Positions 17,244-63,935 of a stretch of 64,000 bases of DNA are shown piece after piece. The notes beneath the pieces are model-generated. The model searched no databases. It saw nothing but the letters and a program-made list of their open reading frames with translations, and was not told where the DNA came from. Position numbers and translations under genes: made by a program. Every line of letters begins with the position of its first letter. Positions within the stretch are counted from its first letter, which is position 1. Source of the stretch: Blasia pusilla (Eukaryota); contig CM114271.1 in assembly GCA_050084515.1 (NCBI GenBank), positions 37,324,001 to 37,388,000 on the forward strand, written 5' to 3'.

Positions 17244-18500
17244 CTACTTATAAGATCCTATGTGATCCTCATAAGAAAGTTTGTAAATGAATGGCGTGTA
17301 TGGGACATTCTTGTGTTCATTCCAAAGGATTTCCATGAATACACTCTCCAACCAATGCAATGCCAAGTTCTCAAGAGCGATGGCGGCAGACTCCAGAATC
17401 ATGCTCGCCATCGGATTGCTAGCCCTGTTGTACTGCACCACCAAATCGCCCAGATTTTCCACGCACTCTTTGGTGATCATATGAGTCTCCCGCACATATG
17501 TGATAGTGAGGTTAGCGAATGCTTTGATGGCCTCCTTCTGCAAGCTTGTGTGCTTGTGCTGTGACAGCAATGTCACGAGACCTATCACCAAGCCCCCAGC
17601 ATTGGGGAACTCCGAGAACATCAATTCGTTCTCCGATAGGCATGTGAGATTAGCCAACACTCTCGCCTTTGTTCTGCGTGTTGGGGCTTACGGTTTTGGA
17701 CATCGATGAATCAAACCCCGACGGCAGCCGGGCATTCTACGATTTTCGATTGGCCTCGTGGGCGTGGGAAAGATTGGCCAACGCCCACGCTGCGTGCTCT
17801 TGCCCATCGGGGTTCGCATTGCGAGAAGAAGGTCCACAGAGCGGGTAGAGCTTTGTGGTAGTCCACGATCTTGAGGCCGTTGTTTTGGGCGCGAGGTTCC
17901 CCAAAGCCATGGCGGCATACTCCACCGAAGAGGATCTTCATCGCAGTAAAGACACGGCGCTACCTCTTCCAAGATGCAGGTAGTCGGCGATTTTAATCTG
18001 AATCTCCTCGGTGGCGGAGAGATTGGACAGAGTGAGAACGGCGGATTTCTGCAGAGCATAGTTCTTGTGGCCCTTGCTTTTGATCAGCAATCCGAGAAGA
18101 CCACGCAGAGCAGCGCTCGAATCGCCCCGAGTGTGCAATCGTCTCGCATTCTGCGGCACTGTGAGAGGCGGGACGAGTCTTGCCTGATTGTCCAAAGCAA
18201 CATCCCCTCCGCCGGTCCTTCGTAAGCATCACGCGCAGATTCCGTGATCGAACAAGTCTATCAAATTCTCCATGGCGTTGGGTTCTCCACAATCATGCGC
18301 CCGCTCGGACGACTGAGTTCAATGCCGAACCGACAATGTCTGGCTGCCGCAATGTTACGTCGGTCTCCCGGTGACTTTGCCGTCCCCCAAGCGGCCGAAA
18401 TCCTTGGGGGGCAAACATAGATGGTCCGCTCATGCACGCCGCGAGAGATTGAAGGAGCTGGTCTCCGACCTTGAGCGGATGCTAAACCGAGAGGCAAGCG
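17244..18500 (-). pseudogene. Apparently intronless armadillo (ARM)-repeat pseudogene, frameshifted
   Basis: ARM-type helices across frames: LQKSAVLTLSNLS, EYAAMALGNLA, QEHAAWALANLS, LQKEAIKAFANLT, ESAAIALENLA. The upstream boundary is approximate. Confidence 0.7.
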
Positions 18501-21125: not shown

Positions 21126-23755
21126 TGTTGGATTCTCAACATCCACTTCTGTGAGCACCATTAATCACATCGGCCTCCTTGTATGAGAAGAAGCCTAGAT
21201 TGATGGTTCCGACTTAGACGTCGGAGGAGTCATGGTAATATGATATAGGTGGTTTATGGAGCAGCGTTACTAGGATTATCTAACCCTCTATTTCACTAGG
21301 ATGTTGGGCACCCAGATGCGTCGCGGGGGTCCTAGGTCGTAGCCTCTGGTATGCCAAGACGATGCGATTTGTTGGGGGCTACGTCATTGGCAAAAATTTT
21401 CTATTAATAAAAACAAAGAAAAATAGGTAAAAAAACCCTAGTTTCCCGAGTAGAGAAATAGTTGGAGCCGCAGCGGTAGCGCATTCTCGTATGTCGAGTT
21501 ATCTCCATGTTCAAGTTCCATCGAAGCTCTTCTGTGAGCGCGCGGACAGACTATGTCACTTTGTATCTCTAAGTTTTGTAAAGATTTCAGTGATTTTGTC
21601 ACTTTCTATTTTCTAACATGGTATCAGAGCAGTAGGTTCTCTAGTATTTTGTATTTGGCGATCTAGTGTGTTTGAACAAAATCTTGAGAGATGGCTACTT
21701 CTTCGTTAGTTCGTGCTCGCCCTCCTCCATTGTGTGAAGGGAAGTTACATGGGTCTAACTATACATCGTGGAAGTTCAAAATGAGAATTGTCCTTGAATC
21801 ATTTGAGATCTAGGAGACGGCTACAGGGGTCCATTCGAATCCACAAACTACTTTGAGTTCTCCATATTCAACTTCATTTGGTGATATCGATCATGTTGTA
21901 TTGCTGGCATGGAAACGCATAAACGTTGATGCTCTATATGCGCTTATCACGAATGTAGCTGATTCTGTCATGACTCTCATTCAACATATGACCAGTGTTG
22001 CTGAGGCGTGGAACATTCTTAAGAATCAGTATGAAACAATGAATGAGACTCGGATTCACAATCTGGAGAATCAACTTACGTCCGAGAAATTTTCAGAAGG
22101 AGAAAGAACGGAGCAATTTTTTACAAGGATCAAGAATCTTCAAGATCAGATGGCGTCCGTAGGAATTTCAAAGTCTAGCAAAGATTTGGCACTTCGGTGC
22201 ATAAGGATTTTGCCTCCAAGGTATAACAGTTTAATCACTGCATTTAATACTCAAGTAAGACCCACATCGCTTACTTTTGAAAATTTTAGTGCAATTTTGG
22301 TAGAAGAGAAATGCGCTTCAAAGCAAGAGAGGGAAGTGATGCAGCATTTATTGCCAAGGTACAAAGAGGTAGAAATCAGCATGATAGTTCAAATGTCAAG
22401 AAGAAATTTCCAAGCAAAGCCTTCAAATACTTTTATTGTGGTAAGCTATGTCATCTTATCAAAGATTGTAGAAAGAAGAGTGATGATGAAAGAATGGTAT
22501 TTTAAGACCTAAGAAGGAGTCTTAGGTCTTAAACAACCATTCTGTAGAACTAGGAGAACATGAAGTAGATGCTTGGGTACCAATCAATGAGTTTTTCACA
22601 CAAGTAGAACATTCCACTAAGTCAAAGAGTGAACATGGATGGGTGCTCGATAGTGGAGCATCTAGGCATATGACTAATCATAAGGATTGGTATAGCTCTT
22701 ATAGTCTCTAGAGGAGCCCATCATTGTTACTATTGGGAATAATGCAAAGTACCCTATAGAAGGAAAAGGTACAATTTCTTTAGTCTCGCAAAAAGAAGAT
22801 GAAAAGAAGTTAATTGATGTATTGTACGTACCAGAGTTGAAGCGCAATTTGATTTCAGTACCAGTATCATGTGATCGTGACCTAGAAGTTTGTTTCAAGA
22901 AAATTGGAGCAGTCTTTGAAGATGCCAATGGGAAAGTGGTGGGTGAATATATACGACGTGGAAATATCTACGAGATGTATGCATTCACGATAAGTGTAGG
23001 TACAAATTTTACTATCAGTAAGTTATGGCATGAAAGATTTGGTCACCTAAGCTTTCCCTTACTAAGTTAGATGCAGAAATCTAACATAGTTGTTGATTTA
23101 TCAATAATTTCTGAGTCTCGGATACATGTGAAGCTTGTATGATGAGCAAGCAACAGCAACAACCATTTCCACAAGAGTCCAGCAATAGAGCAAAAGCTCC
23201 TCTAGAGCTGATTCATGATGATCTTTGTGGTAAAATGAGAACAGTGGCATTAGGTGGTTCTTCTTACTTCTTTTTAGTTATTGACGATTATAGTACGAAG
23301 ATGTGGATGTATTTCATTCTTGATAAGGCAAGTGCTTTTGGAAAATTTAAAGTATGGCACAAGCTGGTTGAGAACGAGACAGGAAAGAAGGTACAAAATC
23401 TTCGCACTGATCGAGGAGGAGAATTTTTATCAAGAGAATTCAACAAATATTAGGGGGAGCATGGAATCCAGCGACAATTAACCAAGGCACATACACCACA
23501 ACAAAATAGAGTTGTTGAGCGCCTTTGGAAAAAAAATTCTATTAGTAGAAACGAAGAAAAATAAGTAAAAAAGCCTAGTTTCCCAAGTAGTGAAGTAGTC
23601 GGGAGCCGCAGCGATAGCGCATTCTTGTATGTCAAGTTATCTCCATGTTCAGGTTCCATTGAAGCTCTTCTGTGCGCGCACGGACGAACTAGGCCATTTT
23701 TATCTCTAAGTTTTGTAAAGATTCATGTGATTTCATCATTTTCTATTTTCTCACA
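21126..23755 (+). mobile_element. Ty1/copia LTR retrotransposon, internally deleted (no RT/RNase H)
   Basis: 5' LTR 21126-21618 (TG..CA) is followed by PBS TGGTATCAGAGC at 21619-21630 (tRNA-iMet type). Coding remnants: gag (NYTSWKFKM, zinc knuckle), protease WVLDSGASRHM, GAG-pre-integrase LWHERFGH and integrase core LRTDRGGEF. The sequence then jumps into a partial 3' LTR (~23525-23755). 5-bp TSD TGTTA on both sides. Confidence 0.92.
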
Positions 23756-25897
23756 TGTTACAATTGCAAGAAACTCTAAACTTGAGAAGAAGTTACAAAG
23801 GTCTGTCGTAAATGCGTTAGTAGTTGGAAATCAACGATAAAAGGAGAAACGAAACAATCCTTCTTTAGCATGGTTGGCAAGAAAGTTACAAGAAATCTTA
23901 GCTAGGGAAAAAAATCAAGGCTTATGAAGAGACATGCCTCTTCATTGAGAGTTAGGATAGGAAGGGTTAAGTAGGAAGGTGAAAAGTTATTCAAGGTCTT
24001 CTTAAAAAAAAAAAAAAAAAAAGGTCCCTAAACCAAAAAAGCATGGTTAGGTAAAGCAAAATTTTTAATACAACTTCTTGAATTACATTACTTTAAAGTT
24101 CTTTCCATATGTGTTGCTAGTGTGGGTTGTTTGAATAAGAAGAAGTGGCTTGTGTTTCCAAGAGCAACAGTTGCAAAAGAAGTTTAAATTGGTGTTGCTT
24201 TCAACTTCTGCTCCATTATTTCTTGACAAGGAAGAAAATTCTTCAAACTAACTCATGGTTTGGAGAAATGACACTACTGACAAGAAATTACAAGTGGAAT
24301 CATTTATTAAAGAAGAATTTAAGTGAAGTAATACATATGTGTTTTGAAGAATAAGAGTAGCATAAGTTTTCCTTGTGTGATTGATTGATGTGTAATTTAT
24401 GAAGAAATATCCAATCAACCTTTGAGAAGACAATTACAACCCAATTTCCCCTTGAAACGAATCCAAACTGACCAAAATTGGTATTTATTTATATTCTTAA
24501 GTGTGATAGGATGATTTGTGCTCCGCTCTCCTCTTGATGATATTTGAATGAGCTTGAAGTCTAAGTTATAATCATTCCAACAGTCTCCAATATTGCAAAG
24601 GCAATGTTTGTTTGCCATCAGATTGCCCTTGCTTTGCAAATGCTCCACAAGCAAGAACACAATGGAAAATTTGGTAGGACAACTTATTCTCGAGCAATTT
24701 TATAATCATCATAACTAAAGTTGGGTCATTTCTACCTACATCTCCATGAGTAGTTGTGGTGGATCCCTTGTGGATGCATCAACCTTGTTCATGTTAGCCA
24801 TCTTCCTCTCCAATAACGACCATGAAGACGATTGTCCCTTCTACATATGTGATAGACACTACTCCTTGCTATCTACTATTTGACTGTTTCCCTATAGTTG
24901 CATGAGTTGGAGAGCGAGTCCTTGTGTGGCGTTTATTTTGTAGAGTTGACTGCTAGATGTTTACTTATAGCGGTCATACAATACGAACTCTACAAAATAA
25001 GTGTAGCAATTTCTTTCTACATGAGCAGAAAGCAATTGCTATAATTGTACACTACAATACAACATGGAAAATTTTGAAGTTTATAAAAATGAAGGGAAAT
25101 TTTGTATAAGATAGGAAGGAGGAATGGAAATCTTATTAACTAGAAATTGATATATATGGAGTGTCTCTACTAGATAAGATAGGATGGTTAAGAGATCCTC
25201 CTATATATATATTTGTTTTTGGGAAAATTTTGGTGACTGATTTCTTTGACATACATAAATTAAATTTTATTTATCGTGCATCTTTCGGGAGGGGAGATGT
25301 TCACCCTAAATGCATGAGGCTACATTCTCCTATTCTTTTTTCCGCAACTTAAAAGTCTTAGTGTGGAAATCTTTCTCTATCTAGATTGGAACGGGATGTA
25401 TCCTTTGCGTCTTTCAAGAGCATAATTATCTCCCAAAATCGAGACACCAGATCTCAAGATGTGAATTTTCTCTCAATTTGGAAAATTCCCTATGATGGGC
25501 TCATTTACACGTGCCTCATCCCCATGTGAACTCTCTTATGAATGTTTAAAGATCATTATTTATCTCAAGCTAGCAGGAATTTCCCATGACCTTTTTTTGG
25601 GCTTCTTGATCATAATTCATGAATGTTAACCATGACTTTCTTATCTTGTGGTTTAAACTTTACTTAGTAGTTGGAAAGCAAAAAACAATCAAGTTTGTGA
25701 CTATGTGAGTTTGACTTCTCAAGTATTGGCTTGTTTACTTGAATTGACTTTTGCCCAAGTTTGTAATGAAATGTACATGCTTGCACTCAAGAATAAAATT
25801 AAAAAATATTTTCAATTATTGCTAGGAATTATTGTTATATTATAATCACTGTCGGAGGAAATCTTACTATCCTTATGCATTTATCTACATATCTTCA

Positions 25898-26021
<124 letters not shown>

Positions 26022-26957
26022 CTCATCAAGCGGTAGATGAACAAGATGTTAGCTTAACTGAAATAATATCTTCTCAAAGAGGTCCCCGGTTCAACTCTCC
26101 CCTTGGACAATAGGAGCCATCCTCAACCCTAAGGCACTGACGTTTCCTACCTAGGATATGGATAGTCATTGTTTGAGAGAGAGTACGCCTTGTTCCTTTC
26201 ATGTGTGTGTGCCTTAACTATGCTCCCGAGTCAAGAATTTGGAAAACAAATCCAAACCTTCACTCCAAAACCAAATCTCCTCCGTGGAAACCCCAAACAT
26301 AAATGTTTAAAATCTAGATGTGAAGGTGCATGTCGGAAGCCAAGTCAATATCACATATCTGGAAAGGGTCCCATAAGCCACATAGACTTTTTCGAACTGC
26401 AACCTTAGCTACTAGCCGACCTTCATCATCTTTATCTTCCATTCTAGAAGTATAAATAATTTCCAAAGTGAAAGTAGTGCTTTGGTTACTCTCCTTCCCA
26501 AATTAATAAAAATTTCTATCTTTTGAGAAAAAAGAAATCGATGTGTCTCATAGGTTTTCTCTCCATGGCTATTTCAAATATATTTACATCTCTCTCAAGT
26601 TATGCGTAGAATTGATTTGGGTAAAAATACTCATTGGAGATGCATGATGGCACCAAGTGGATATGTTTGGTGTGTAACCACATGTTCTTACCCAAAAACA
26701 AAATAAAGTGCAACCAACATCTGATTAAAACCATCCAAACATGGACCAATGCTACTTAGTTCAATTGGAACATCCAAGTAGACTTCCTATGGACCCTAGA
26801 GAGGGCTTAAAAAGGCAAATTAGTGATCCCCAAAGAGGAAGATATTTTGAGGAAATCTAGTTATGCAATTAAGTGAAAGAAAAATGACAAGAAGAAATTA
26901 TATCCATTGTGCCAAATTCTTTTGAAGAGATGACAAGCAATCAAAGAAAGTCCTTGG

Positions 26958-27095
26958 TGTCGTGCGCATACATATCGCTACATAACATACATCGCTGGTC
27001 ACATCTACACTACACAACACTAATCTTCCCCAAATACGGGTCGATCCACACATGTACAAAAATCAACTCATACATATACATGGAGATCACACAAC
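26958..27095 (-). repeat. Terminal repeat segment A1 (138 bp)
   Basis: Direct repeat of 27578-27715. Confidence 0.93.
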
Positions 27096-27109
27096 AAAAA
27101 TTAAGAGTA

Positions 27110-27575
27110 GTAAAAACGGCACACCCGGCCTAAAACTCCACTCCTCAATCTACATCCGCATATCGAGCCTTGTCCACCCTAGGCTATCAAGGAATCCGGA
27201 CGCTAGCACCCTAGTCATATCTCACACACATACAAGAGAGGTGCTCCAACGGCCCAACATGAGAAAGATGGCTTAGGAAAGCCATCTTCCTCTCTTATAT
27301 AGGGTTGGGAAGAGCCAAAAGGCTCTTCCCCTAAAAATAGCTATCCCCTTGATAACCTGTGCGCACAGGTTACCAGGGGCGGGTGACATGGTCAACAAGT
27401 CATCCGGCTATAGAAGACCTCAATAGGAAAGTTGTCGAAAACAACGTTCCTGACACAATGGACCTATCCTCAACCTCATCCGACACTGTGGGATAAAGTT
27501 ACACTCAAGATAGTCCACTGGCTCCTACGCCCTATCCACGATAGATCTTGGCCTATCGGCTACTCAGATGTGACA
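27110..27575 (-). repeat. Repeat segment B1 (466 bp)
   Basis: Ungapped direct repeat of 36360-36825, about 39 mismatches by manual count (~92% identity), mostly transitions. Confidence 0.95.
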
Positions 27576-27577
27576 GT

Positions 27578-27715
27578 TGTCGTGCGTATACCTATCGCTA
27601 CACAACATTCATTGTTGGTCACATCTACACCACACAACACCGATCTTCCCCACACACGGGTTGATCCATATATGTACAAAAATCAACTCCTACATATATA
27701 TGGAGATCACACAAC
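27578..27715 (-). repeat. Repeat segment A2 (138 bp), joined to B1 through 2 nt
   Basis: On the minus strand: PPT-like tract, A2 ending CGACA, then AC, then TGTCAC starting B1. Confidence 0.93.
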
Positions 27716-27724
27716 CGCCCCCCT
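27716..27724 (-). promoter_or_regulatory. Polypurine-tract-like sequence
   Basis: AGGGGGGCG lies directly before GT-TGTGTG (start of A2), downstream of the pol stop. Confidence 0.6.
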
Positions 27725-27791
27725 AGTTGGCAGTTGGATCCCCCCAACTCCAGATAGAAAATATCACATCTCTCTAACATGACCTACTACC

Positions 27792-27935
27792 CTATACACA
27801 TCTCAAACACATCCATCGTCTCGTGGGAACTACATCAAGAGGGGGGGTTCAGACATGACATATGCCACCCTCGAGAACAACCATCACATACCAATATGGT
27901 GGTTGCATCCCTCGCAGATCCGCACAACAAACACC
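27792..27935 (-). pseudogene. PHD finger at the integrase C-terminus
   Basis: CLLC..ILVCDGCSRGWHMSCLNPP, then LDVVPTRRWMCLRCV* after correcting one frameshift in the G run at 27841-27847: a complete C4-H-C3 pattern. Confidence 0.85.
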
Positions 27936-28429
27936 TCAAGCCTGCACGTACCACTGCCAAACTCGGATCCAGTGTCCCGTCTACGTTCGAAAGATGACAT
28001 GGTGCACAATTGCGCCCATGATCCTTCCAAACCATACAATCCCGTGCCTCCAATATGAGGACTCCGGTCGGTAATACCTCGCGCACACATAGGATCGTGC
28101 GTCCTGCAGTGACATCCAACGTCATGGGTACCGCCTCTTGTAAATACACGTAATCTCCAGGATGAAACCTCCTAATCCTTGAACGATAACCTCCTCCACG
28201 AATGGTCGCGTACCTCAATGTATCTCTATGTTGAGCAATAACTAAGTTCTCAAAGGCCATAAGCATAACTCTATGAAAAATTTCCGCCCTTTGAGAACAC
28301 GCTTGTCCCCACACATCTGGATCATCAAGATCTTAGACCTCCGCCATGTCACGTTGAATAGCTACAAGTAAATCCATCTCTCTCCCAAAGAGCAAGAAGT
28401 ATGGTGAAAATAACGCAAAGGATGCATGC

Positions 28430-29060
28430 TAACTAAAGCGATAACCCATAGCCAACCATGGCAACTGTAGGTCCCACTCCCTCAATTGTCCTCGCTGCAA
28501 GCCATACTTGCGCAATCCTCTCTTCACCGTCTGTACTACTCTCTCCGCCAACCCATCCGCCTCAAGATGATCTCTAGATGTGGTGCAGTGATCTATCAGC
28601 GTCTGATCACAAAAGGCCTGAAACTCTCCCCTGAACTCGGTACCTTGGTCAATCAACACCTCCGCCGGTGCACCAAAGTGACTAAGCACACGACTAGAAA
28701 AGCATAGGTTGTTCCCTCGCTCGCCTTGTCCAATAGTGCCACCAACTCTATCCACTTGGAGAAATGCTCCACCATGACCAACACGTATCTATGATGACAC
28801 CTCGTCAATGGCAAAGATCCCGCAAAGTCTAAACTCCACTGATAACCTAAACCCATAATCGGCAAAGGATGTAACTGCGGAGTGGGAGCATTGAAGGATG
28901 CTCACACTCTGTCACATACCATACATTTGGCCACAAACTGTTGTATCCCAGTATGCATGCCGCGCCACCAATACTGAACTTGGAGTAAGCTGTAAGTACG
29001 CTTCACTCCAAAATGTCCCAACTCCTCATGGGCATGTCGCACTACACGTGCTCGCTGGGA
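28430..29060 (-). pseudogene. Gypsy-type DDE integrase (degenerate)
   Basis: WSLDFAGSLP, VMVEHFSKWIELVAL, FGAPAEVLIDQGTEF, ADGLAERVVQTVKRGL. Confidence 0.9.
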
Positions 29061-29439
29061 AGGATGAGGTACCACTCATATCCTACCATCTCCCCTTACC
29101 CGCCAAATGTGAGTCCCCTTCCACCTGAACCTCCTGGCTTGCCGTAGGATCTGATCCCGCTCCCTAGCACTCATTGTGCTCGCTATGACGCCAGTGTGCA
29201 AGAACTCCACAACCTCCACGTCATCATGGATATCACGACCACCTGTCGCCTCCTCACTGACCTCCGAATCCAAAGACTCATCATCCAACCCCACTACTGG
29301 AGTCATCACTTGTGGCTGACCTACCATTGTCAACCAACAAAGATAGGCATATGCATGCCAACCGGGCACTATCTCCTCATCACTCTCTCCGTGCCATCGA
29401 GCTCTTGTATTGTCTCTCTGGCTCAGACATGGGTTACGA

Positions 29440-30480
29440 CTCAACCCATTCACATCTTGGTTTAGCCACTCCCTCTCCTCATCATCCCTCTGAGTAAGCA
29501 CTGCTCCTAGATCCAACATGCTCCAATCCGTATGTAAATGGAATGGGTGACCCCTAACCGGTCTCTGTAAAATAGATAAGGAGGTCAACCTGTCCTTGAG
29601 TTCCTAAAATGTTGGCTCCTGATCATCTCCCCACAACCAAACCTGATCAAGTCTCAACAAGGTCAAAGACTTTGCAATCGCACTACAACCCTTCACATAC
29701 CGTCGATAGAAGTTTGCCAGTCCAAGAAACGCTCAAACTCGACTCACATTTGTAGGGCGTGGAATCTGCGCAATAGCCTCCTCCTTTGTCTGATGAGCGC
29801 CTAACCCACTCGGGTATATGGTGTGTCCCAAGTACTCAAATTTCTCCTTCAAGAATCTACACTTGCATGGATGTAACTTCAGTCCATGTAACTGCAATCG
29901 CGGAAACACCTCCTCCAGGTGTCGCTCATGCTCCTCAACCGTAGAACTGAAGATAAGAATGTCGTCTATGTAACACCGTACAAAATCAAAGCCAGCCATA
30001 ATCCTATCCATCACTTTCTGAAACTCTGCAGGCGCATTCTTCAACCCCAAATGGTAAGAATTGCCATTGATACAAGAAATCTCTCCAGAACCGATCTATC
30101 CCCCATAATGTTGTCTTCTCCTATCCTCCAACTTGATAGGAAGTTGATGATAGCAAGCACGAAGATCTAAAGTATTGAAGATCTTTGCATGCCCTACCGC
30201 ATCAAAGATCTCCTCAGGCACGGTATACCAATCTGACCTCGTCTATCGGTTAATAGGAAGGTAATCTCCACACATCCGCCTATCCGTCCAATTGCCATAC
30301 ATATCCTTCTTCGCCGGCATGATTGTGGCAGATGCATACTCCCCATGTGATAACTCCACAAGGCCTGCCTCCAACAAGTCCTGACTCCTGCTCTGAATCA
30401 AGGCTCGCTACATATCAGAATACCTGTAGGGTCGACGAAAGATTGGCGTATCACTAGCCAACTCAATCTGTATCCCGGGA
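29440..30480 (-). pseudogene. Gypsy reverse transcriptase and partly deleted RNase H
   Basis: GLKNAPAEFQKVMD, YIDD at 29961-29972, LKLHPCKC, YLGH; RNase H FHLHTDWS..LGAVLTQ. Confidence 0.92.
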
Positions 30481-30919
30481 CCCTTTAGCGTACCTAAGTC
30501 TCTCATACTGAAGACAAAACAACTTACATGCCCTCTCTGAAAACTATGAACTCACAGTCGCTCTCCTCCTATCAACTTGAGACATATCACAGGCTCTCAA
30601 GTCTCCATCATCACCTCACTCAGCGAGGACGGAACCTCTAGCTTTGGTTGCTATGTAGCAACCCTAGCCACCTCCGCAATAGTCACTCCACTATGACCTC
30701 CTACGCCATGCTCCACATCCAAAAAAACAAACATGTGCTACTCTGTCCGCCTTCGCACTCTCTGCTTGAATGACGTCCCAGGAAGTCCATGGGTGCCTAT
30801 CTCTCCTCGTCCCACCCCCAGCCAATGCCTGTATAGACCCTGTAGGAAATGGTCCAACTCGTGGACGTGACAACATGGATGACACTCGCATCCGTCTATG
30901 CTCAGCCATACCTAGGTTG

Positions 30920-31870
30920 ACTATCCATGTGAGACCGTTGAGGTCCATTGCGTGCCCCAACACCTGTCTCCCGGATGCCTCAATCATACTTGGCACCGCC
31001 GTAGTACCCGTAGCAAACCCCCTGGCGCGCTCGCGCTCATCTGTTGTAGGCTCCTCTAATGGTCATGTCACCTCATCCCAAATCATGCCTGTCCCTCCCT
31101 GACAAAAGGCATGGGATGCAGGGAAGCTCACCAACGTAGGTAAGGCTGCCCTCAACTCCCCCACCCTATTGGCCATCGCCAACGGTGGTCTATCATCCCG
31201 CGTCACCACCTGAGATTGACGCCCAAAGCTCAAAATAGCATCCACTATGAGATGTGGTGCTCTCTATACTCTATCGTATGCTCGACTAAATACCTCTGAT
31301 GGTATTAGGTTCGTCCACCATAATCATGGACAATGGGCACGTGATCCAACTCTCGCTGCATCTTGCAACACAACAGGTCCCAACCAGGACCTCACCTGAT
31401 GCACACTCGTCATCACACGTGCACGAGTGTCTCCCAACAATGGCACGTTCTCCAAAATGTACGCTGGAGAAGATGTCTGACTCTCCTGCAAGTGTTGTAC
31501 TACTCGCAACATCTCTCAAAATATCCATCACCTCGGATCTTACAATCCAAATCCTCGCACAGCTGATGAATGACCCTGACATGGCCATCCAGAAATCACC
31601 AAATGAATAGTGCCAACTCTATCCAGGTCCTACGCCCCCACCAAAGAGATGTCCGTGGGTAGTGTATGCAGATATCCCCGTATTGCAGATACCGGCAACA
31701 ACTCACGATACCTCTGGACCAATCTCGCTACGTAACGTAGTGATACTAGTCGCGTAGTCTCATGTCTCTCCACATAAAGGTACTGATGCACCCGTATGCA
31801 TGACTGCAATACTGCAGCCAATATGGTGCTAATCCCTCCGAAGAGATCTAACACCCTAACACCCTCCTTG
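30920..31870 (-). pseudogene. C5-cytosine DNA methyltransferase domain (DNMT3-like) within the retrotransposon pol region
   Basis: One reading frame broken only by in-frame stops. Motif I VRVLDLFGGI; II YLYVE; III LPTDI; IV HLVISGWPCQGHS (GWPCQ at 31576-31590); VI YILENV; VIII DAARVGSRAHCP*LWWTN; IX ERERARGF; X RQVLGHAMD. Confidence 0.9.
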
Positions 31871-32249
31871 GACATTACCACACAATGGGTGTAGTATCCA
31901 GTGGGATTAACGTCTCCACTTCAGGAGCCCGATCCCCACGTGACTCTCGCTGCTCCGGGATAAAGGCATGACTCCACACCTACCTCACGAGGTCGTCGAC
32001 ACTCCTTTGTAGCTCTTGAGTCATACCTCACAATGGTGAAGAGTTCTCGCCCATAGGGGAAGAGACATCCACCATGGCCAGTCTCTCCGTGGGACTATCC
32101 GCTATAGGGACATCCTCCGCATGTGCATTCCACTCCAACAACTCTCCTCGCCAACTAACACTACCTATGAAAGTTGCCAACGTGATCACAGACTCGTCTT
32201 GTGATTGACCACCTCGTCCCACAAACTGCACGGGTAACTGACTCATCTG

Positions 32250-32620
32250 GCCATCACCTGACCGCCATCCTAGTCGATAAGCAACGGTCTCCTTCCAGAA
32301 GTCAAGGATGAATCCTAGGGGATATAACACTGTACTCCCTACCAACACATTATACGACTCATGTGGTGTCGTAATCGCACGTGTGTGCACCATAGCACTA
32401 ACTGTTGCATGCTCTGGCTGGACTCTGACAACTATCTTCTGTTGAGTCATATACAGCATGGGTGACACGCCCCCAATCGAGATCTGTATCTAGAAGGAAT
32501 AAGTCTCAATGTCGGCCTTCTGTATCCCCAACGCTAAACACGCCGCCTTCCCTAACATCAAGGGCTGCGCTTCCGAATCAAGTAGGACGCGCTACGGGTG
32601 GTATACAATCCCCGTTGGAC
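32250..32620 (-). pseudogene. Retroviral-type aspartic protease
   Basis: RVLLDSEAQPLMLG (32551-32591) and YNVLVGSTVL; copy 2 retains LLDSGAQ. Confidence 0.75.
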
Positions 32621-33449
32621 TAACCAAGAAAAATACTCCAGCTCGGTTATCCAGTAACATTACTCCAGGTGTTACCACTGCTCGCTCTATGGCCGGTCGA
32701 GCTGGCATATCTATCAACTTCGCCGCCGCCGTATGCCATGACTCTGTTGGGGACATCCCGAGCATCGGCTCTGAGGGCAAGTCCACCACCTCCTCAACTA
32801 CCTCTGACCAAGAAGTAGTCACCTCTCCACGCTCACACAACGTGGCGGCCAGCCGGAACACCACAGCTCGTCCAACTCCCAATGTCGCCAACTCTATGGC
32901 GGAAAATAGCGGAGTCTGACTCACTCAGGTGGCCACCTCCAACACTATGGTCGACACTGAGTCCACTCGAGCTGGCATAGGAGTTTTCACTCCAACTCCT
33001 CGTGACGTCCACCTAGATGCCTGAGCTGTAGGCACCTCTGGTTGTCGAGGCACCATCAATGGTGTGTGTAGTGCCTCCGACAATGTGAATGATTGTGGAA
33101 CCCTGGCTTGCCGTCCATCGGTCCCCTCCGGTAGGTCAATCTCAACTCCACCTCTCGATGGCTCGGTGCCTCTCGTAGCATCCCGAGTCACCACTGCAGC
33201 CGCCTCAACCTGAGCTGCACTACACATAAACCCAATACTGGCAAGATCCTCACCCGGGTCAGGGTAAGAGGTAGAAGCTGGAGCCACACTAGTTGCTCGC
33301 GGCTCCGTGCCTTCCGTGAGTTGCATCATCATCATGACAGCAATCCTCTGCTCTAAATGATCGATGCGTGAGAGAAATGTTGGCTCTCGTGCTCTTGCTC
33401 CATCTCCTATGGCTGGTGGTTGTCCTCTACCACCACGTCCAGGAAGAAC

Positions 33450-34629
33450 TCCCTGATCTCCTCCAAGACGACCACCCCCAGGCCCTCGGCCTATCTCTAG
33501 ACGTGCCTCTCAACGAAGGTCAAATCATCTATCCCTAGTGGGACCATATCTGGGGCAATAGTCACACTGGTATTGTGGTGGGGCCATCCTCTAGGGCTCC
33601 TAAGCAATCAGAAGCGCTCGTGGTCCTCTCCCATGCTCTGTGTAGTCTCTCTGCCTATGGGCCCCTCCACACGTCCAGCAAGACAACATATGTAGGTACG
33701 GGTCGTTGCCTCATAGGCTCACAATATCCGCCCTGCTCTCTGGGCACACTGGCCTCCTCCTGTGGTATTGGTGCTCATTGTGGCACCTGTGCGGTCACCA
33801 TCGCTCGTGGACCCGTCGACTCTCAAGAAAATCCAGCGGTCACTACCTGCTCCTCACTCATGTTAAGCTCAATACGCTCAGAAAAATCATAGACCACCTT
33901 CAATGTGGGCTTCGTTGTGTGAATCAGCACCGCATCTCGGAATCTCCTCCGTAGTTCTCGGTCTAGATTCCCAAACCAATACTGGACGGACTGCGCCTGA
34001 GTCACTCCATACGTAGCATTGATCAGCCTCCTCATGCGCGTTAATGCCTCTCTTAGACTCTAACCTGATTGTCGCTGAAAATCATGTAGACTCTTCAGCT
34101 TGTCAATGCGTACACCCTGGTAGCTCTTCCCCAACTTTCGGAAGAACTCCATTGTGGGGCTGAAGCTGGGTGGCCCTCTACCACTAGAGGTCTCTGCCAC
34201 ATCGCCTGTCTCACTGCCCTCCTCTCCATCTAGTCTCCGGCCTAATGGTGTGGGTTTCTCTCCTCTCACAATCCCATCATATGCATCGCGACCACTAGTG
34301 GACACATACCCTAGAGCCCAATACATCCTCCAGGCATCGATCTCTATTGAATATAGTGATCAAAACTCCATGTAATCATCCATCAAATGACCCTCCAAGT
34401 GCTGGAACAACCCCTTCCATGCCATGAAAGGGTTGAATCGTGTTGGGGTCCGTATCTCTTGGTAGTCGCACCACGTATCAAACTCTTGGATAAAATCATC
34501 TAAGTCGATGGTGCCCACTGCACCCAAGAAACGACGCATGTCTCGATGGCCCATGTCATCCATCTCCTGCCAAATGATATTGCCTCCGTCTACGATCTCG
34601 TCACAAGACCCAATATCTAGTGATGACAA
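33450..34629 (-). pseudogene. gag-like region (degenerate)
   Basis: DLDDFIQEFDTWCD..FQHLEG..DDY and LHDFQRQSG, plus zinc-knuckle remnant CDYC near 33560. Homologous blocks occur in copies 2 and 3. Confidence 0.75.
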
Positions 34630-36347
34630 TCTAGCCAGAGATGGATGTCACGGTAGCTCCTCACTGGTAACCCCTCGGTATCTCACTCCACTCTATGTCA
34701 CACCTCTACTACTGCTCGCACTTCCCCGTTCTTCCGAACCCTGGAAGAACGTCGTGATGACAACCTTGTCTCACCTGCTCAAGCACTCAGACTCACCGAA
34801 AGTCTCCCACACTCTTTACTAGCTCACCTATGCTAACGTCGATCTTGTGATGAATACCAAACCTCATGCACACTCAACACTCATGCTCACCATGAGCCTC
34901 CCAACTGACTCACCTAACCTAGTGACACTCTCTCGGGTCATACACGCGACCCCTACTTGGAAAACGTCGTACATCCACCAACATGCTACACATGAAAAAA
35001 GCCTACACTCGTCACCATCACTGCACCCACCTAGCACCAACTACTACCCGATACCCAGCACTCTCAATCACACACGATAAGTGCGGGAAAAGGGACTCAA
35101 ATGGGTAACCTAATCACGCCCTCCAACCTACTGTATCGTCAACACACACTCCTCCATGTGGTTCGACAACCTCTGTAGCACAACCATCTCCTTGTACAAC
35201 ACGACAAAAACCTCATGTCAATGGATGCGGACTACCCATCAGCATCAACATACTAACACTCCGTCATCAGCTCATCGTTGTAGAGGTTCCATCTCGACCC
35301 CAACTATGTAACTCTCCTCAAACCACATCATGGCTCCTACCACGTACTCCGCCCCAATCTCTCTTGCTCATCCTAATCATCCACTTCCCATGAAGCGCGC
35401 AAGACACCGCTGATCCTTGGGGCCCATAAAGTCAAACATCACCAATCACCTGTAGGGAATTACTCGATCCAAGCTTGAGTGCCACCCTTGTCCGCCTCCC
35501 AGGCTGGACCCGACCTCCGGCTCATGCTTCTCTTATTATCCGTATTGCTGCCTGAGAGATTGAGACTCCCGCCCCGTCGATCCAAGGACCGCGATTACCC
35601 CAAACCCTGCCCAAAATCCCGCTCCACCAGTTCCGTCTCCCAACTCTCCACTTTTGGTTCCCAGCTTTGTCACTTCCGGCTCCTGGGTTCATCACTTCCG
35701 GCTCCCTTTTCCTAGTCCCGCACTGAAGTTCGGGCACGCTGCCTTATGCAACTGCCCACGTTCTTGGAGGTCCTTTCTCCCGACTCTCCCCTCTCTACCG
35801 CGGCCTTGGCCCTATGTGGCCCGTTGAGGGCACGTAACCCTATGCGGTTGCAACCCTACTTCCCTCCATCCTCAGAGCCTGTGATGCGCGTCCCTATGCA
35901 CCCGGTCCACCAAACCTCCCCCGTGTGACACTTGGCGGCCACACGATTGGCTAGCTTTACTCAGCCCGACCTGGGTACCTTCCGCGCCTTCCTCCCCACT
36001 CATAGTGCCCTATCCCTATCACCTGCGCGATCTAACCCTAGGCGACCTAGCCGCCCTTTACTTGACAGCCCCCCGGCGGTTGCAAGCCCTAACTCTCCTT
36101 CTTGGTTACTCCCAGCATTCTTGCTATTAGATGACGTTACACCTACCGTCACAACCTACGCTACACCCTACTCTTGTCCCCAATGAACCCGCACCATCAA
36201 AATCTGAAAAAAACGGACAGCGCTTCCGCGCATAGCCTTCTGAACAGAGAAATGACCAACGCCCGCAACACACGCATTTCCAAGGGCTCTTGACCGAGGC
36301 AACTCCCTTGCCTACCTGCAAACAATGAATTCCCACCAGCCCCCTAG

Positions 36348-36361
36348 CATCTTTCTCATGT
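36348..36361 (-). promoter_or_regulatory. Putative self-priming primer-binding site
   Basis: Minus-strand ACATGAGAAAGATG at the inner end of B2 is the exact complement of LTR sequence 27257-27270 (one mismatch to the B2 equivalent 36507-36520), which lies ~30 nt downstream of a TATATAA box. Confidence 0.75.
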
Positions 36362-36825
36362 AAAAATGGCACACCCGGCCTAAAACTCCACTCCTCAATC
36401 TACATCCGCATAGCGAGCCTCGTCCACCCTGCGCTATCAAGGAATTTGGACGCTAGCACCCTAGTCCTATCTCACACACATACAAAAGAGGTGCTCCAAC
36501 GGCTCAACATAAGAAAGATGGCTTAGGAAAGCCATCTTCCCCTCTTATATAGGGTTGGGAAGAGCCAAAAGGCTCTTCTCCTAAAAATAGCTATCCCCTT
36601 GGTAACCTGCACGCATAGGTTACCGGGGGCGGGTGACCTGATTAACAAGTCACCCGGATATGGAAGACCTCAATAGGAAAGTTGTCATAAATGATGTTCC
36701 TGACACAATGGACCTATCCTCAACCTCATCCGACAATATGGGACAAAGTTGCACTCAAGATAGTCCGCTTGCTCCTATGCCCGATCCACGATAGATCTTG
36801 GCCTATCGACTACTGAGATGTGACA
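36360..36825 (-). repeat. 5' terminal segment B2 containing a TATA box
   Basis: Repeat of B1; TATATAA on the minus strand at 36545-36551. Confidence 0.93.
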
Positions 36826-38872
36826 TTGGATTCCTTACTTGGGAAAGAAGCCATCCTTGTTGGCTTTAATGGGGTTTAATTTCCATGAGTACTTTCACGT
36901 GCATTATTGGGAAGACCTCTTAAATAGCAAAAATTGTGGGCATTGTCTTGGAAAAGTTCAATGACTACCAAACAAGCAATGCCATTATGGAGATAGTTGC
37001 GTTGGGTTGTTGGATACCATTGAGAGAGCTAGTAAGACTAGGTCTAAAAGATTATTGGGAGGGGTAAGCAATATTTTTTGCACCTAGACTTGGTGAAGAA
37101 ACTATGAAAGGTGGTGGAGAAGAAAGGGGTTGTGTAGTTGGACTTTTTTCCTTGTGAATCTTTTAATCCGAGAGATAAGCAAGTGAGGGAGAAAAATTCT
37201 TGGATAGCTAGAAATAAGCAAAACTTGATGGATTGGCTTGAAGGAGATCAAGGAAAAATTTTCATGGCCAAAAAAAATGTAAGGAATAGTTGGAGAAGAG
37301 GAATTTAGAGGAAGTGGAGGAGGTTTGTAAGGAAAGGGCATGTAGCTTTGTGCCCAAAGAGAAAAGAGATGAAGATCTTTGAGATGCGGTAAGAGAAGAG
37401 GAAGATAGGAGAGAGGAAACTATTGTCAATCCGAAGAGACCGTTTTTAACAAAGTTTCATGTGATTTGAAAAGAGTTTCATATGTGTTGAAGAGAGAGAG
37501 GTATTTCTTAGTTCATATTTTATGTTTATGCTCCTTCTTCATAGGCACTTCCTCCCCATACTTTTATTCTTCTTCCCTACTATGGAAATTCATCTAAATC
37601 TAACAGGTCGCACCACTCATGAAATAATATTGTATCCAATTAACACTCAATAGATAGTTCCAAAATCGAAAGAATTCATTGGGAGTATAAATGTGGAAAT
37701 ATGGCTAAAAGACGATTTGAGTGGAATTTGCAAGTTTTGCACGTGGATAAATTCCGTGTGGACAAACTTATGTCTAACAGAATAGTGTCGGGCATGCGAC
37801 AAGGTTGTACACGGACAAGGTGTGTGTTCATGGATATGTTTATGATCGTGTGGGCTCCGATTCCCCCAGCTACCACCAGGCCTTGTCCCATTTGCAAAAT
37901 AAACTCGAGCTCGGCCATCCCACACCAAATCTAGCAATTTGTCGCCAATTCTTGCCACCCGTCTTATAGCCTAGACCAAGCCTTCTCTATCGCGTCCCTA
38001 CTCTCCTTGAACGTCAATCTTTAGTGTTGCGGAAGCGTACGTTAAGTAGGTCACGATCTCATCACCGATCTGCACCCAAACATGCACTCTCGTTAGTCGG
38101 GTGTGGGCCAACCAGCGTTCCAACCCATTGAGTTCTCAACTCGCTGTCTCATCAAGCTCAACCTTCCTTAATTCCTAGTTTCCAACACATGGCAAGTCTT
38201 TCAAGACTTAAAACACACTTCCTGGTTAGTCCAGGGATCTTAAACGGCACTAGCGCGCCTAGTGATCCCAACTGTTCAATGGACCTCGTGTGAGTTTCAA
38301 AATGAGACCCAAGTAATTGAGTCGCGGGGTGAAATCCAAGAGGGATGTCTAAAATCACCTCAATAGACTTGGTGCACGTTTTCCAACCCAACCCCCAAAC
38401 TCTTGATCCGTTCCATGCCCTTGAGCCACCCCGCGGCGCCCAAAGTGGGGTTCGAGTTCCAAGCACTCTCGGAGACCTTCCCCCTTACTAATAATCAGGG
38501 TTCTCCAATAACCCCTCTTTGGAAAAGGAGGGTCGGGCCCTTCATTGTGGCCCTCAACCCGACTCTACTTATAGTCGTTTCCGAGTTGTTTCTCAGCCGC
38601 TGCTTATGCGTTTACAGAGATCTTAAGTGCGTTTGAACCTGCTTTCCATAAGCCTTCCAACGCACCCTTATTTAATCCAAACGCATCTTGGAGCTAAAAT
38701 TTATGGCCATAAATACAGTCAGAAACTCTCAAACGCTAGTGGCGTTCCAAATCCGGATTCTTCCTTTGGCAACCCACTTCCTAGACTCAACTTCTTTCAA
38801 GTCTTGTTCCGCTTTTGGTCCAGGTTTCTCAGTCGCGACCATAACATCTGAAACACGAAGCCTCGCTTGCGT

Positions 38873-39100
38873 CTCATCTCTTGTCTCTTCTTCGAGACCA
38901 CTCCAACGCACAAACCATCTTAGCGTGAGCCCACTAATGTTCCGATGTTCCGCTTTGGCACTCGTTTGGTGATGAGGGTCACGACACTCACCTCTTGTCT
39001 CTTCTTCGAGACCACTCTAATGCGCAAACCATCTTAGCGTGAGCCCGCTAATGTTCCGATGTTCCGCTTTGGCACTCGTTTGGTCATGAGAGTCGCGACA
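38873..39100. repeat. 114-bp tandem duplication, each unit ending CGACA
   Basis: Units 38873-38986 and 38987-39100. Confidence 0.9.
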
Positions 39101-41034: not shown

Positions 41035-41820
41035 TACCTATATTTTTAAGTGCAAACATGTTATTAAAAATAAAATATTTCAAACTTTTCTATTTTTAAT
41101 AACAAAAAAATAGGAATCTAAAAAGATTAAAAAGCTTAAGAAGCTACTCCTCTCTTTAGTTCGGATCATTCTAATATCATCTTGCCATACTTCAAGAATG
41201 ATGTCCTTACTATTCTAATCACTTCTTAATTAGTTAACTTCCAAGTGTGAGAAAATAGAATGTGATGAAATCACTAAACTGTATTACAACTCTTTGAGAT
41301 ACAAAGTGGCCTAGTCTATCCGTGCGCTCAAAAAAGAGCTTCGATGGAGCTTAATTAGAATAGTAAGGACATCATTCTTGAAGTATGGCAAGATGATGTT
41401 ATAATGATCTAAACTAAAGAGAGAAGTAGCTTCTTAAGCTTTGTAATCTTTTTAGATTCCTATGTTTTTTTTTTATTAAAAATAGAGTAGTTTGAAATGT
41501 TATATTTTTAATAACATGTTTGCACTTAAAAATATAGTAGTTTGAAATGTTATATAGGTAGTCTATTTTGAATAAAAAATATATAGGAATCTAAAAAGAT
41601 TACAAAGCTTAAGAAGTTACTCCTCTCTTTAGTTTGGATCATTCTAATATCATCTTGCCATACTTAAAGAATGATGTCCTTACTATTCTAATTACTTCTT
41701 AATTAGTTAACTTCCAAGTGTAAGAAAATAGAATGTGATGAAATCACTAAATTGTATTACAACTCTTTGAGATACAAAGTGGCCTAGTCTGTCCGTGCGC
41801 TCACAGAAGAGCTTTGATGG
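41035..41820. repeat. Direct-inverted-direct local triplication
   Basis: ~41111-41349 is repeated at ~41585-41820; ~41354-41540 is the reverse complement of ~41035-41220. Confidence 0.8.
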
Positions 41821-42017
41821 AACCTGAACATGGAGATAATTTGACATACGAGAATACACTATGGCTCCCAACTATTTCACTATTCCTGAAACCACCTATC
41901 TTATATTACTATGATTCCTTCGATGTCAAAGTCAGAACCATCAATCAAGGCTTCTCCTCATATAGGGACTCGATCATATAGACGGTGCTAAGAGAAGTGG
42001 ATGTTAAGAATCCAACA
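41719..42017 (-). mobile_element. Copia solo LTR, same family as 21126-21618, internally deleted
   Basis: Reverse complement starts TGTTGGATTCTTAACATCCACTTC, like 21126. 5-bp TSD CCAAG at 41714-41718 and 42018-42022. Confidence 0.88.
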
Positions 42018-57061: not shown

Positions 57062-57249
57062 GTGCGCTTTATGTCCGCTATTTGTAGATAATGGATTAAA
57101 CAAAGGCATAAGTCGTGGTAAAAGCTTTCATAATCGTGGTGGATATAAAGTATATGGAGGAAGAGACGCTTAACATAACTTCACTTAGTCAATTATGAAC
57201 GAGTACCAAACACAATCACAAGGTGGTCGGTGATGTTGGAAATCGTTTG

Positions 57250-58565
57250 GGTTAAGGTGATTTAAAGAGTGTCCTTTGATCTTGCAATTACTATGGGATA
57301 AATGATCCTTATGCAAAATTTTGTTTCAAAAAGAAGGCATATATGAGAACAAGAGTTTTAGAAGAAAGAAACTATGTGGAACAACAACACCAACTATAGT
57401 ATCAAGAACAATAACATTCACAAACTAAGCACCTCTTGACCATGTCTTATTGTATGGGAGTAATGGTCAAGAAAGATTCGATGACATGTTGGTACATCGA
57501 CTTTGGTGAATCAAATCACATGATCTCACAAGCTAAATATTCAAAAGCAAGGATTCTGTGAAAGATCTTGCAATAGTGCTTATGGGAGATGATACATAAT
57601 ATCGTATCGTGTATACCAGTAAAGTTTCAATAGCATCATTTGATCTTTGTGTTGTTGGAAATGTTCTCTAGATTTCTACTATTGCAAGAATTTTGATCTC
57701 CGTAGGATAGATAGTAGAACATGATTATCAAATGACTTTAACATAAATGGTTGTTTCATTGAAATAGTGGATGACCACATTATGATAACCAATGGAACAA
57801 GATCTAGAAGAATGTTTAAATAATATATTTTTATGCTATAGATACAAACAACAATGTATGGTCAAACTGGCCAACAAGTCACAAATCTCAATGTGTAGCA
57901 TAAGAGAACTAGGCATATAAATCTTCAAAGATTACAAAGTCTTTCATAATCTAATCTAGTAATAAGACTTCCTAAATCATCGAGTCCTACTATGTTAGAG
58001 GTACACCATGCTTGCCAATTTTTGGAAAAAAACTAGATTTCCATTTCCAAATCAAGATACAACAACATATTGAGTTGATATTTGAGTTGATTCACAATGA
58101 TCTATGGTTAACGTCAGAACATAGCTTTATTGGTTTACCGTATTTTGTTTCATTTATTATGACTTATCTAGGTATATATGAATATATACTTTTTGAAAGC
58201 CAAGCTAGAAGTATTATTAATATTCCAAATATTTAGAATTCGGGTAGAGAAGTAGACATGACAGCACATTCTCAAATTTTATTGTGATGGAGGAGGAGAG
58301 TACCTTTCAATAGAGTATGATGACTACTTACGTCAAAATCATATCCAAAAAAAAGTCATTTTTTATTACACTATAATCGATATATTGTTGAGGCGGCACA
58401 TGCTATTCTGAATGAGATGAACATGACTAAGATATATTGGATAGAGGATGTAACGTGCATAGTCTTCTTAATCAACCGAACTATAATAGAAGGAGTTCAT
58501 CATATGAATTCATTGAAAGTCTTCACATGAAGTAAATATGATTTTTCATTCCTTTAAGTCTTTGG
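57250..58565 (+). mobile_element. Old Ty1/copia pol remnant
   Basis: WYIDFGESNHMI (protease), FELIHNDLW, CDGGGEYLS (integrase), VFG; many stops. Confidence 0.75.
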
Positions 58566-63805: not shown

Positions 63806-63808
63806 GCA

Positions 63809-63935
63809 TTGGAGATATTTTGGTACTTCTTGTCTCGTTGTTTGGATGCCATGAGTTAGCATGGGATCATGCGTGTTTGTGTGTGTGTTCGGTGACAGCG
63901 ATGTATGTTGTGTAGCGATGTGTATGGGCAGGACA
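63809..63935 (+). repeat. Inverted copy of terminal segment A abutting the B terminus of copy 3
   Basis: Reverse complement of ~51254-51381; ends GGACA. Confidence 0.88.

Follow-up and report, generated by a model that had tools for sequence, protein, structure and literature searches.

The 64,000-nucleotide stretch of Blasia pusilla DNA analyzed here (the window; assembly GCA_050084515.1, contig CM114271.1, positions 37,324,001 to 37,388,000) carries, at window positions 26958-36825 on the minus strand, a 9.87 kb Ty3/Gypsy-type retrotransposon with a DNMT3-like C5 cytosine methyltransferase between the protease and the reverse transcriptase (RT). This is almost certainly a dead copy of a streptophyte lineage that was first described as KnitGypsy-Dnmt3 in Klebsormidium nitens. 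Taken as a whole, the explanation given below is likely, with the identity of the element weighted most. Judged from sequence, the most likely role of the intact members of the lineage would be methylation of their own new DNA or of their landing site.

The methyltransferase (DNMT) coding stretch lies at 31872-30763 on the minus strand, in a single frame. Frame 1 of minus-strand 31920-30691 contains one methyltransferase with 7 internal stops (at 31632, 31542, 31530, 31518, 31326, 31266, and 31065) and 1 terminal stop. On this strand, motif I (LDLFGGIS) was located at 31851-31828, motif II (YLYVE) at 31782-31768, motif IV (GWPCQG, with the catalytic Cys) at 31590-31573, motif VI (ILENVP) at 31458-31441, motif VIII (GSRAHCP, a stop, then LWWTN) at 31347-31309, motif IX (DERERARGF) at 31041-31015, and motif X (VLGHAMDLN) at 30963-30937. 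The motif order is thus linear and not rearranged as in DRM. The first-pass annotation, made from the letters alone, had listed these motifs together with motif III, in order in one frame and interrupted only by point stops; this held for the seven motifs above, whereas motif III was not separately located. The catalytic motifs of C5 methyltransferases (FxGxG, the PCQ Cys, the ENV Glu, and RxR) are all present, even in this broken copy. The domain scored 24.5 bits against the Pfam DNA_methylase family (PF00145), where the cut-off is 22 and intact relatives reach 24.7-46.1 bits, and a sequence search returned homologues down to an E-value of 1.9e-142. Therefore, the methyltransferase match is not due to chance. 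The domain is 63% identical to Marchantia P0090 over 370 residues.

Profile and fold comparisons both placed the enzyme closest to DNMT3A/B/C, in line with the class assigned to it earlier. A profile built from 21 relatives matched DNMT3A best in the PDB (E 5.5e-24), followed by DNMT3B and DNMT3C (~1e-22), DRM (7.6e-13), DNMT2 (~5e-10), and M.HhaI (2.5e-8); no DNMT1-named chain was among the 58 PDB matches listed for this profile. The best solved relatives of the single window domain were also DNMT3A chains. An AlphaFold model of the relative P0003 (mean predicted local distance difference test score 76.1; 224 residues at ≥90) was compared with the PDB using Foldseek, and only DNMT3A, DNMT3B, and DNMT3C appeared among the matches listed to rank 50 (best E 2.6e-17, target template modeling score ~0.8). 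These results support a DNMT3-like domain, with DNMT1, DNMT2, DRM, and bacterial enzymes all more distant than DNMT3. The domain shares with host DNMT3A/B/C the linear motif order I-X and the AHRxRxWW(T/G)NL and ERxxGF stretches. In contrast to these host enzymes, which are ~20-22% identical to P0003 in structural alignments, the retrotransposon domain lacks PWWP and ADD and is embedded in a retrotransposon polyprotein. Motif IV also differs, reading GWPCQ in the window and GSPCN in the aligned DNMT3A chain. The catalytic motifs (GWPCQ, ENV, and the AHRxRxWWTN stretch) show little or no variation among the 21 relatives aligned.

The domain order of the whole element is gag, protease, DNMT3-like methyltransferase, RT, RNase H, integrase, and PHD finger, all on the minus strand. 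It was determined with Pfam and with tblastn, for which Marchantia and metagenome polyproteins served as queries. The gag N-terminal part (33778-34647, with 3 stops; tblastn-matched span 34563-33778) is 54% identical to residues 1-258 of P0090 and matched no Pfam family. The gag C-terminal part with the protease (31878-33683, with 9 stops) lies in a different frame from gag and is 42% identical to residues 301-874 of P0090. Its protease active-site stretch reads LLDSEA, whereas both P0090 and another copy in the window (copy 3, described below) have LLDSGA. Downstream of the methyltransferase lie the RT (29604-30596; Pfam RVT_1 1.2e-22; tblastn P0097) and RNase H (29076-29603; RT_RNaseH_2 4e-8), matched together at 30596-29100. 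The integrase (28429-29237; matched span 29237-28698) consists of an H2C2 zinc-binding domain (Integrase_H2C2 1.3e-16) and a DDE core (weak rve match), was matched by P0109 and P0199 in tblastn, and contains an internal frame change. Its C-terminal extension (27835-28332; matched span 28716-27841) ends in a PHD finger (Pfam PHD 4.4e-7, residues 134-164 of the open reading frame, ORF) that is cut by a stop. Counted by tblastn over these coding pieces, in-frame stops number at least 29 and frame changes at least 4. GC skew of the plus strand is strongly negative (-0.18 to -0.34) over 28000-36000, so the coding (minus) strand is rich in G over C.

The element has the repeat layout A-coding-B-A-B in its own orientation. 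Repeat A1 (36360-36825, 466 bp), which forms the 5' long repeat and starts with TGTCAC, pairs with repeat A2 (27110-27575). The two are identical at 427 of 466 positions without gaps and differ by 29 transitions and 10 transversions (Kimura two-parameter distance 0.090). Repeat B1 (27578-27715, 138 bp) lies directly upstream of A2 and is 88% identical to repeat B2 (26958-27095), which forms the 3' end of the element and closes with CGACA; 389 DNA reads depart from the sequence at 26958 with low mutual agreement, which is expected of an element boundary. The outer ends thus correspond to TG..CA termini, and they are flanked by a 4-bp target-site duplication, TTGG, at 36826-36829 on the upstream side and at 26954-26957 on the downstream side. 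Despite these termini and the duplication, the 3' end is B-A-B rather than a single long terminal repeat. The inner B-A junction reads GACA, 2 bases, TGTC, and resembles both element ends joined with 2 bases between them. Pfam listed no tyrosine recombinase family in the window or in the scanned relatives, where Integrase_H2C2 and rve are present. With a DDE integrase, a 4-bp duplication, and the A-coding-B-A-B layout, the element therefore integrates as a DDE-integrase element and yet carries a DIRS-like arrangement of repeats. No primer-binding site was recognized by eye after A1.

The same repeat layout was found in full in 5 of 16 long related loci from metagenomes (L034, L040, L044, L050, and L075). 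Among the other 11, L010 has A1 and A2 but is cut, L047 has B-A-B only, and nine are without such a pattern. A perfect 4-bp target duplication was present in L034, L040, and L075, as in the window, and 3 of 4 bases were duplicated in L050 and none in L044; these readings, the window's included, were taken with the BLAST boundaries moved by a few bases onto the TGTC...GACA ends.

Relatives of the window domain are numerous. A single-sequence search returned 88 proteins of similar length and 27 longer ones, and a profile search returned 192 proteins, of which 120 were listed. All named matches with at least 50% identity, among the matches listed, come from liverworts or Sphagnum: Marchantia polymorpha, M. 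paleacea, Riccia sorocarpa, Calypogeia fissa, S. troendelagicum, and S. tenellum. S. fallax matched at 43%. The longer relatives include at least 14 gene models of Marchantia polymorpha, and no vascular plant, hornwort, or moss other than Sphagnum was named among the matches listed. A HMMER search gave 558 cluster representatives with E ≤ 1e-30, a number that rises to 3455 at E ≤ 1e-10; the names obtained for 20 representatives include Klebsormidium nitens GAQ93235.1, three Closterium strains, and Scenedesmus sp. PABB004. The DNMT lies upstream of RT in 60 of the 60 loci that hold both domains, out of 80 metagenome loci, and it also precedes RT-RNase H in the Marchantia proteins P0097 and P0103. 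Of 18 long relatives scanned, 13 have a PHD finger after the integrase. These results bear out three earlier proposals, namely that the domain is retrotransposon-encoded between protease and RT, that it is a trait of the family and not a local capture, and that the system occurs in land plants, here in four liverwort and three Sphagnum species.

Two architectures were distinguished among 269 domain-matching proteins. The window order, DNMT before RT, was present in 13 of them, and 81 have the order RT-RNase H-DNMT-integrase-PHD; a further 24 are fragments with the DNMT just before the integrase, and 151 are too short to show the order. A FastTree tree was calculated from 189 domains of these proteins (at least 280 profile positions covered, duplicates removed). 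All 7 tips of known DNMT-before-RT order fell into one 64-tip clade that is free of RT-before-DNMT tips and includes K. nitens GAQ93235.1, three Closterium proteins, and bryophyte sequences. Within it, a 21-tip bryophyte group, supported at 0.998, contains the window domain; the members with a name are from Marchantia and Calypogeia. When 104 sequences were placed in a second tree, the window domain stood beside Calypogeia fissa P0021, its nearest named relative, and unnamed sequences, which points to a bryophyte, probably a liverwort, as the host. The window domain is 56-63% identical to the liverwort proteins and 34% identical (over 325 residues) to GAQ93235.1, with which it shares a clade (support 0.91, in the FastTree tree only, which has no host outgroup). 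The far larger sister group with RT before DNMT (P0108-P0271) includes the 'pol' of Scenedesmus sp. PABB004, and one of its members, P0155, has an additional G-patch between DNMT and integrase.

Selection on the domain was estimated from the 80 metagenome loci, whose codons were placed on the guide P0003 by tblastn; stop and gap codons were excluded, and the ratio of nonsynonymous to synonymous changes (dN/dS) was calculated according to Nei-Gojobori. Purifying selection acts on the DNMT domain between intact relatives, with dN/dS of 0.13 for L036/L037, 0.10 for L036/L038, and 0.11 for L037/L038. The ratio was 0.44 for L040/L060 and, over 72 codons, 0.27 between the window element and a second copy in the window (copy 2). 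Synonymous sites were saturated between the window and more distant loci. Although the window copy itself is broken, 8 of the 80 loci have no stop in the DNMT (L004, L010, L036, L037, L038, L040, L060, and L079). Constraint was not seen throughout: in the close, mostly dead clade, the median dN/dS was 0.60 (588 of 595 pairs). The pattern is that of a transposon family, with constraint on the transposing lineages and near-neutral decay after each insertion.

Reads from runs labelled as the same organism were placed on 26901-36900. The DNA depth was ~230-255 over repeat A, ~130 over RT, ~136 over the integrase, ~42 over the 5' part of the DNMT, and ~0.7-0.9 in the lowest bins. Since 4105 of 4268 placed DNA reads were only 95-99% alike, they originate from many related copies. 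At 293 listed places, nearly all reads disagree with the window; of these, 101 have T in the window and C in the reads, and 63 have A in the window and G in the reads. This excess fits cytosine loss by deamination in the window copy. Three RNA runs yielded 68-74 placed reads each, and in the coding bins the first mate was almost always on the plus strand, which in the usual stranded libraries indicates RNA of the element's sense strand. Because the RNA reads were mostly 95-99% alike, they point to low transcription of the family rather than of the window locus. The family is not dead, as judged by the high depth on repeats relative to unique parts, the low sense-strand RNA, and the constrained intact relatives. 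From ~1,966 million letters of the DNA run that were read and the 0.7-0.9-fold depth in the lowest bins, the genome size would be roughly 2-3 Gb, a very rough figure.

A conserved stop separates the methyltransferase from RT in the bryophyte-type relatives. In L037, a 1369-amino-acid ORF (gag-protease-DNMT) ends at a single TAG (5083-5085) and is followed in the same frame by a 1047-amino-acid ORF that runs from RT onward. L036 and L038 share this stop, and the contexts in the three loci are TAG CAG TTA and TAG CAA TCA. In the clade of P0003, 26 of 35 loci (L001-L035) match a pattern in which the stop, TAG in 20 and TAA in 6, precedes CAA CCC or a close variant of it, and RT and DNMT are in the same frame in most loci. 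Likewise, Marchantia gag-protease-DNMT gene models stop 14-99 residues past the domain. The window retains a homologous TAG at 30653-30651 (minus strand), followed by CAA CC as in the TAG/TAA CAA CCC context; with frames assigned by hand, it shares the frame of RT but not that of the DNMT.

UAG CAR YYA is the classical readthrough context of plant viruses such as tobamoviruses. The presence of UAG in a CAR YYA-like context suggests that production of Pol would depend on readthrough, with the methyltransferase belonging to the abundant upstream product. The element family resembles murine leukaemia virus gag-pol and tobamovirus readthrough in that the two long ORFs of L036-L038 are separated by one in-frame UAG, with CAG UUA or CAA UCA after it. 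It differs from them in that the protease and the methyltransferase lie upstream of the stop and in that the commonest context, CAA CCC, fits only in part.

These features can be combined into a mechanism for intact members of the bryophyte-type clade. The methyltransferase would be the last domain of ORF1 (gag-protease-DNMT), which would end at one conserved in-frame stop in a CAR-YY-type context, and RT-RNase H-integrase-PHD would be made only through occasional readthrough. The particle would thus package an enzyme produced in Gag-like amounts, which would act on newly made cDNA or on the fresh insertion, while the integrase-linked PHD finger would read the state of the histone H3 tail at the target. 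That the family's enzyme methylates the element's own DNA in this way is a possibility that we hold at clearly less than even.

Several observations weigh against this account of the element, its origin, and its mechanism. The window copy is dead and nothing in it is functional; as it is thoroughly broken, the locus itself writes no methylation. The earlier suggestion of an element that writes its own methylation was therefore not borne out here, and two further results bear on it. The CpG observed/expected ratio is 0.69 in the element and 0.69 in the whole window, so that the element bears no sign of extra CpG methylation of its own. In addition, the K. nitens domain produced no methylation in a yeast test, a result that the authors call inconclusive (PMC5890265). 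The readthrough layout, which we consider somewhat probable, is read from the position and the context of the stop; the CAA CCC context agrees with the CAR-YYA rule at 5 of 6 places, and the sister clade (L040) has no stop between DNMT and RT. Of the 80 metagenome loci, 72 have a stop in the domain or were covered too little to be listed, and the young, very close intact pair L004/L010 gave a dN/dS of 0.89, to which the median of 0.60 in the mostly dead clade is added. Finally, the 64-tip DNMT-before-RT clade as a whole is weakly supported (0.62), although the node that joins K. nitens and the bryophytes reaches 0.91, and host DNMT3 or DRM sequences were not part of the trees, so that the domain may have been captured on separate occasions.

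Other explanations were weighed against methylation of the element's own new DNA. If the domain is active in intact copies, it could instead act on host chromatin, marking the target region or, in heterochromatin that allows the element to persist, maintaining methylation, under the guidance of the PHD finger. The PHD finger after the integrase, in the window and in the long relatives counted above, would suit such a role, as would the RT-before-DNMT architecture, in which the DNMT is directly beside integrase-PHD, and the repeat-rich window with its three copies of such elements. In the bryophyte-type clade, however, a stop and RT-RNase H separate the DNMT from integrase-PHD. We regard action on host chromatin as rather unlikely, and it would require the same enzyme activity as action on the element's own cDNA. 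Less probable still is that the domain has been kept for a role other than on DNA, for example, to methylate the RNA of the element or to bind nucleic acid inside the particle. Placement in the gag-side ORF would suit packaging into the particle, and the failure of the K. nitens domain to methylate DNA in yeast is reported and RNA methylation is raised for LINE-type elements (PMC5890265). Nevertheless, all catalytic motifs known from DNA C5 methyltransferases hardly vary among the 21 relatives aligned, and sequence and fold are far closer to the DNA enzymes DNMT3A/B/C than to the tRNA enzyme DNMT2, which makes this role improbable.

Two further explanations concern the origin of the domain rather than its function. 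The host could be a charophyte and the element simply the described KnitGypsy-Dnmt3 family, since both are placed in the same lineage and have the same repeat layout (PMC5890265). This is very improbable, as identity of the domain to the K. nitens protein reaches only 34%, whereas it is far closer to the liverwort proteins and lies inside the strongly supported bryophyte group with Calypogeia fissa as its nearest named neighbor. The chance of a host DNMT3 fragment that landed by accident in one element, or of fortuitous motif matches, is negligible. This explanation was rejected because the domain occupies the same in-frame position in the second window copy, in 60 of the 80 metagenome loci (those with both domains), and in the Marchantia gene models, and because 558 cluster representatives matched its profile at E ≤ 1e-30. 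Methylation of the element's own new DNA or landing site is therefore retained as the most likely role of intact members, with the strength given above.

The closest described system is KnitGypsy-Dnmt3 of K. nitens (de Mendoza et al. 2018, PMC5890265), a Gypsy-type element whose DNMT3-like domain is not rearranged. This paper gives a Ka/Ks below 0.2 for the K. nitens DNMT domain, groups the K. nitens copies with host DNMT3 in a tree, and describes the A-coding-B-A-B layout for SymbioDIRS, stating that KnitGypsy-Dnmt3 has the same. In its yeast test, dinoflagellate DIRS domains methylated CG de novo, and the authors propose that retrotransposon DNMTs methylate reverse-transcribed DNA. KnitGypsy-Dnmt3 thus resembles the window element in its Gypsy Pol, its DNMT3-like domain within the coding region, and its repeats, and it resembles the window family in that its domain falls into the same DNMT clade (GAQ93235.1) and is similarly constrained (Ka/Ks below 0.2 compared to 0.10-0.13 in intact relatives). 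The two differ in the low identity of their domains, the closest relatives of the window domain being in liverworts and Sphagnum. The main text of PMC5890265 gives neither the place of the domain in the polyprotein nor a stop after it nor a PHD finger, and 'PHD' occurs in it 0 times. As the window element most likely belongs to the same lineage as this published charophyte family, it represents an extension rather than a new system. SymbioDIRS-Dnmt3 of Symbiodinium, described in the same paper, shares the DNMT3-type domain in a retrotransposon and the A-coding-B-A-B layout but has a tyrosine recombinase, in contrast to the H2C2/DDE integrase and the 4-bp target duplication of the window element.

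Green-algal elements of the order RT-RNase H-DNMT-integrase-PHD (e.g., KAF8056149.1 of Scenedesmus sp. PABB004) have a DNMT of the same family and the same integrase with a C-terminal PHD finger. They differ from the window element in that the DNMT follows RNase H, and their identity to the window is ~31-37%. Our literature searches found no paper that describes them. Chromoviruses, which have a chromodomain after the integrase, resemble the window element in carrying a chromatin-reader module at the integrase C-terminus. In the window element this module is a PHD finger, and Pfam matched no chromodomain after the integrase in the window or in the scanned relatives. Literature searches aimed at bryophytes returned no report of DNMT-carrying retrotransposons; subscription journals were outside their scope, and the supplements of PMC5890265 and PMC12344493 may list such sequences. 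Six Marchantia gene identifiers were not mentioned in the literature searched. Four points go beyond the searchable texts of papers: that the lineage is present and abundant in liverworts and Sphagnum, that two architectures exist among green plants and algae, that a PHD finger is linked to the integrase, and that a conserved stop places the enzyme in the gag-side reading frame.

To our knowledge, methyltransferase-carrying transposons have been described until now only in dinoflagellates and one charophyte alga. Cytosine methylation is the main weapon of the host against transposons, and a transposon that carries this weapon itself is therefore a paradox. We tentatively suggest, as an unlikely possibility, that liverworts and peat mosses, including Marchantia polymorpha, harbor live members of a retrotransposon clade that is ancient in the green lineage, and that these make a DNMT3-type enzyme in Gag-like amounts, because it would be encoded upstream of a programmed readthrough stop, and that these members methylate their own new DNA or landing sites. 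If this is true, transposons rather than the host would write some of the de novo methylation in these plants. The lineage is common in liverworts and Sphagnum, and Marchantia polymorpha, a genetic model, has at least 14 of its gene models, which moves the question into a plant with routine knock-outs, methylome maps, and transposition assays. The conserved stop also leads to a concrete prediction of how much enzyme each element makes and where that enzyme goes.

Besides the main element, the window contains two further copies of a related family, both on the minus strand and both recognized by sequence matches. Copy 2 (58560-63935) consists of the 5' region, gag, protease, and the start of the DNMT. 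This second, diverged DNMT (58564-58788; tblastn residues 16-92, 51% identity over 77 residues) contains motifs I and II and is then truncated. The first-pass annotation had reported motifs I-III at the same position in a second copy; the copy and its position are real, but motif III was not confirmed. Copy 3 (51254-57062) belongs to the same related family and comprises the 5' region, gag, and the first 30 protease residues; it is 79-88% identical to copy 2 over three matched blocks. At its truncated 3' side, copy 3 has a 131-bp stretch (51254-51384) that recurs inverted, with 88% identity, at 63805-63935 just upstream of copy 2; the first ~45 bases of this stretch are similar to the beginning of repeat B in the main element.

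The remaining features of the window are of other kinds. Rfam and tRNA scans of the window gave no matches. A decayed Copia-type element lies at 21814-23450 on the plus strand, with gag, a protease-like barrel, and an integrase core in separate ORFs. Helitron remains (47052-50237, minus strand), with pieces of Helitron_like_N and of a PIF1 helicase, are located in an AT-rich stretch. Two coding remnants, the only traces of host-like coding sequence, are also on the minus strand: an Armadillo-repeat remnant at 17247-18292, which has in-frame stops and frame changes and weakly matches a plant U-box ARM region, and, at 10207-10524, a weak BRO1 exon. Short tandem duplications (237 bp x2, 114 bp x2, and 260 bp x2 at a spacing of 473) and a long CT/AG microsatellite were observed at 12778-13251, 38873-39100, 41089-41821, and 25826-26110.

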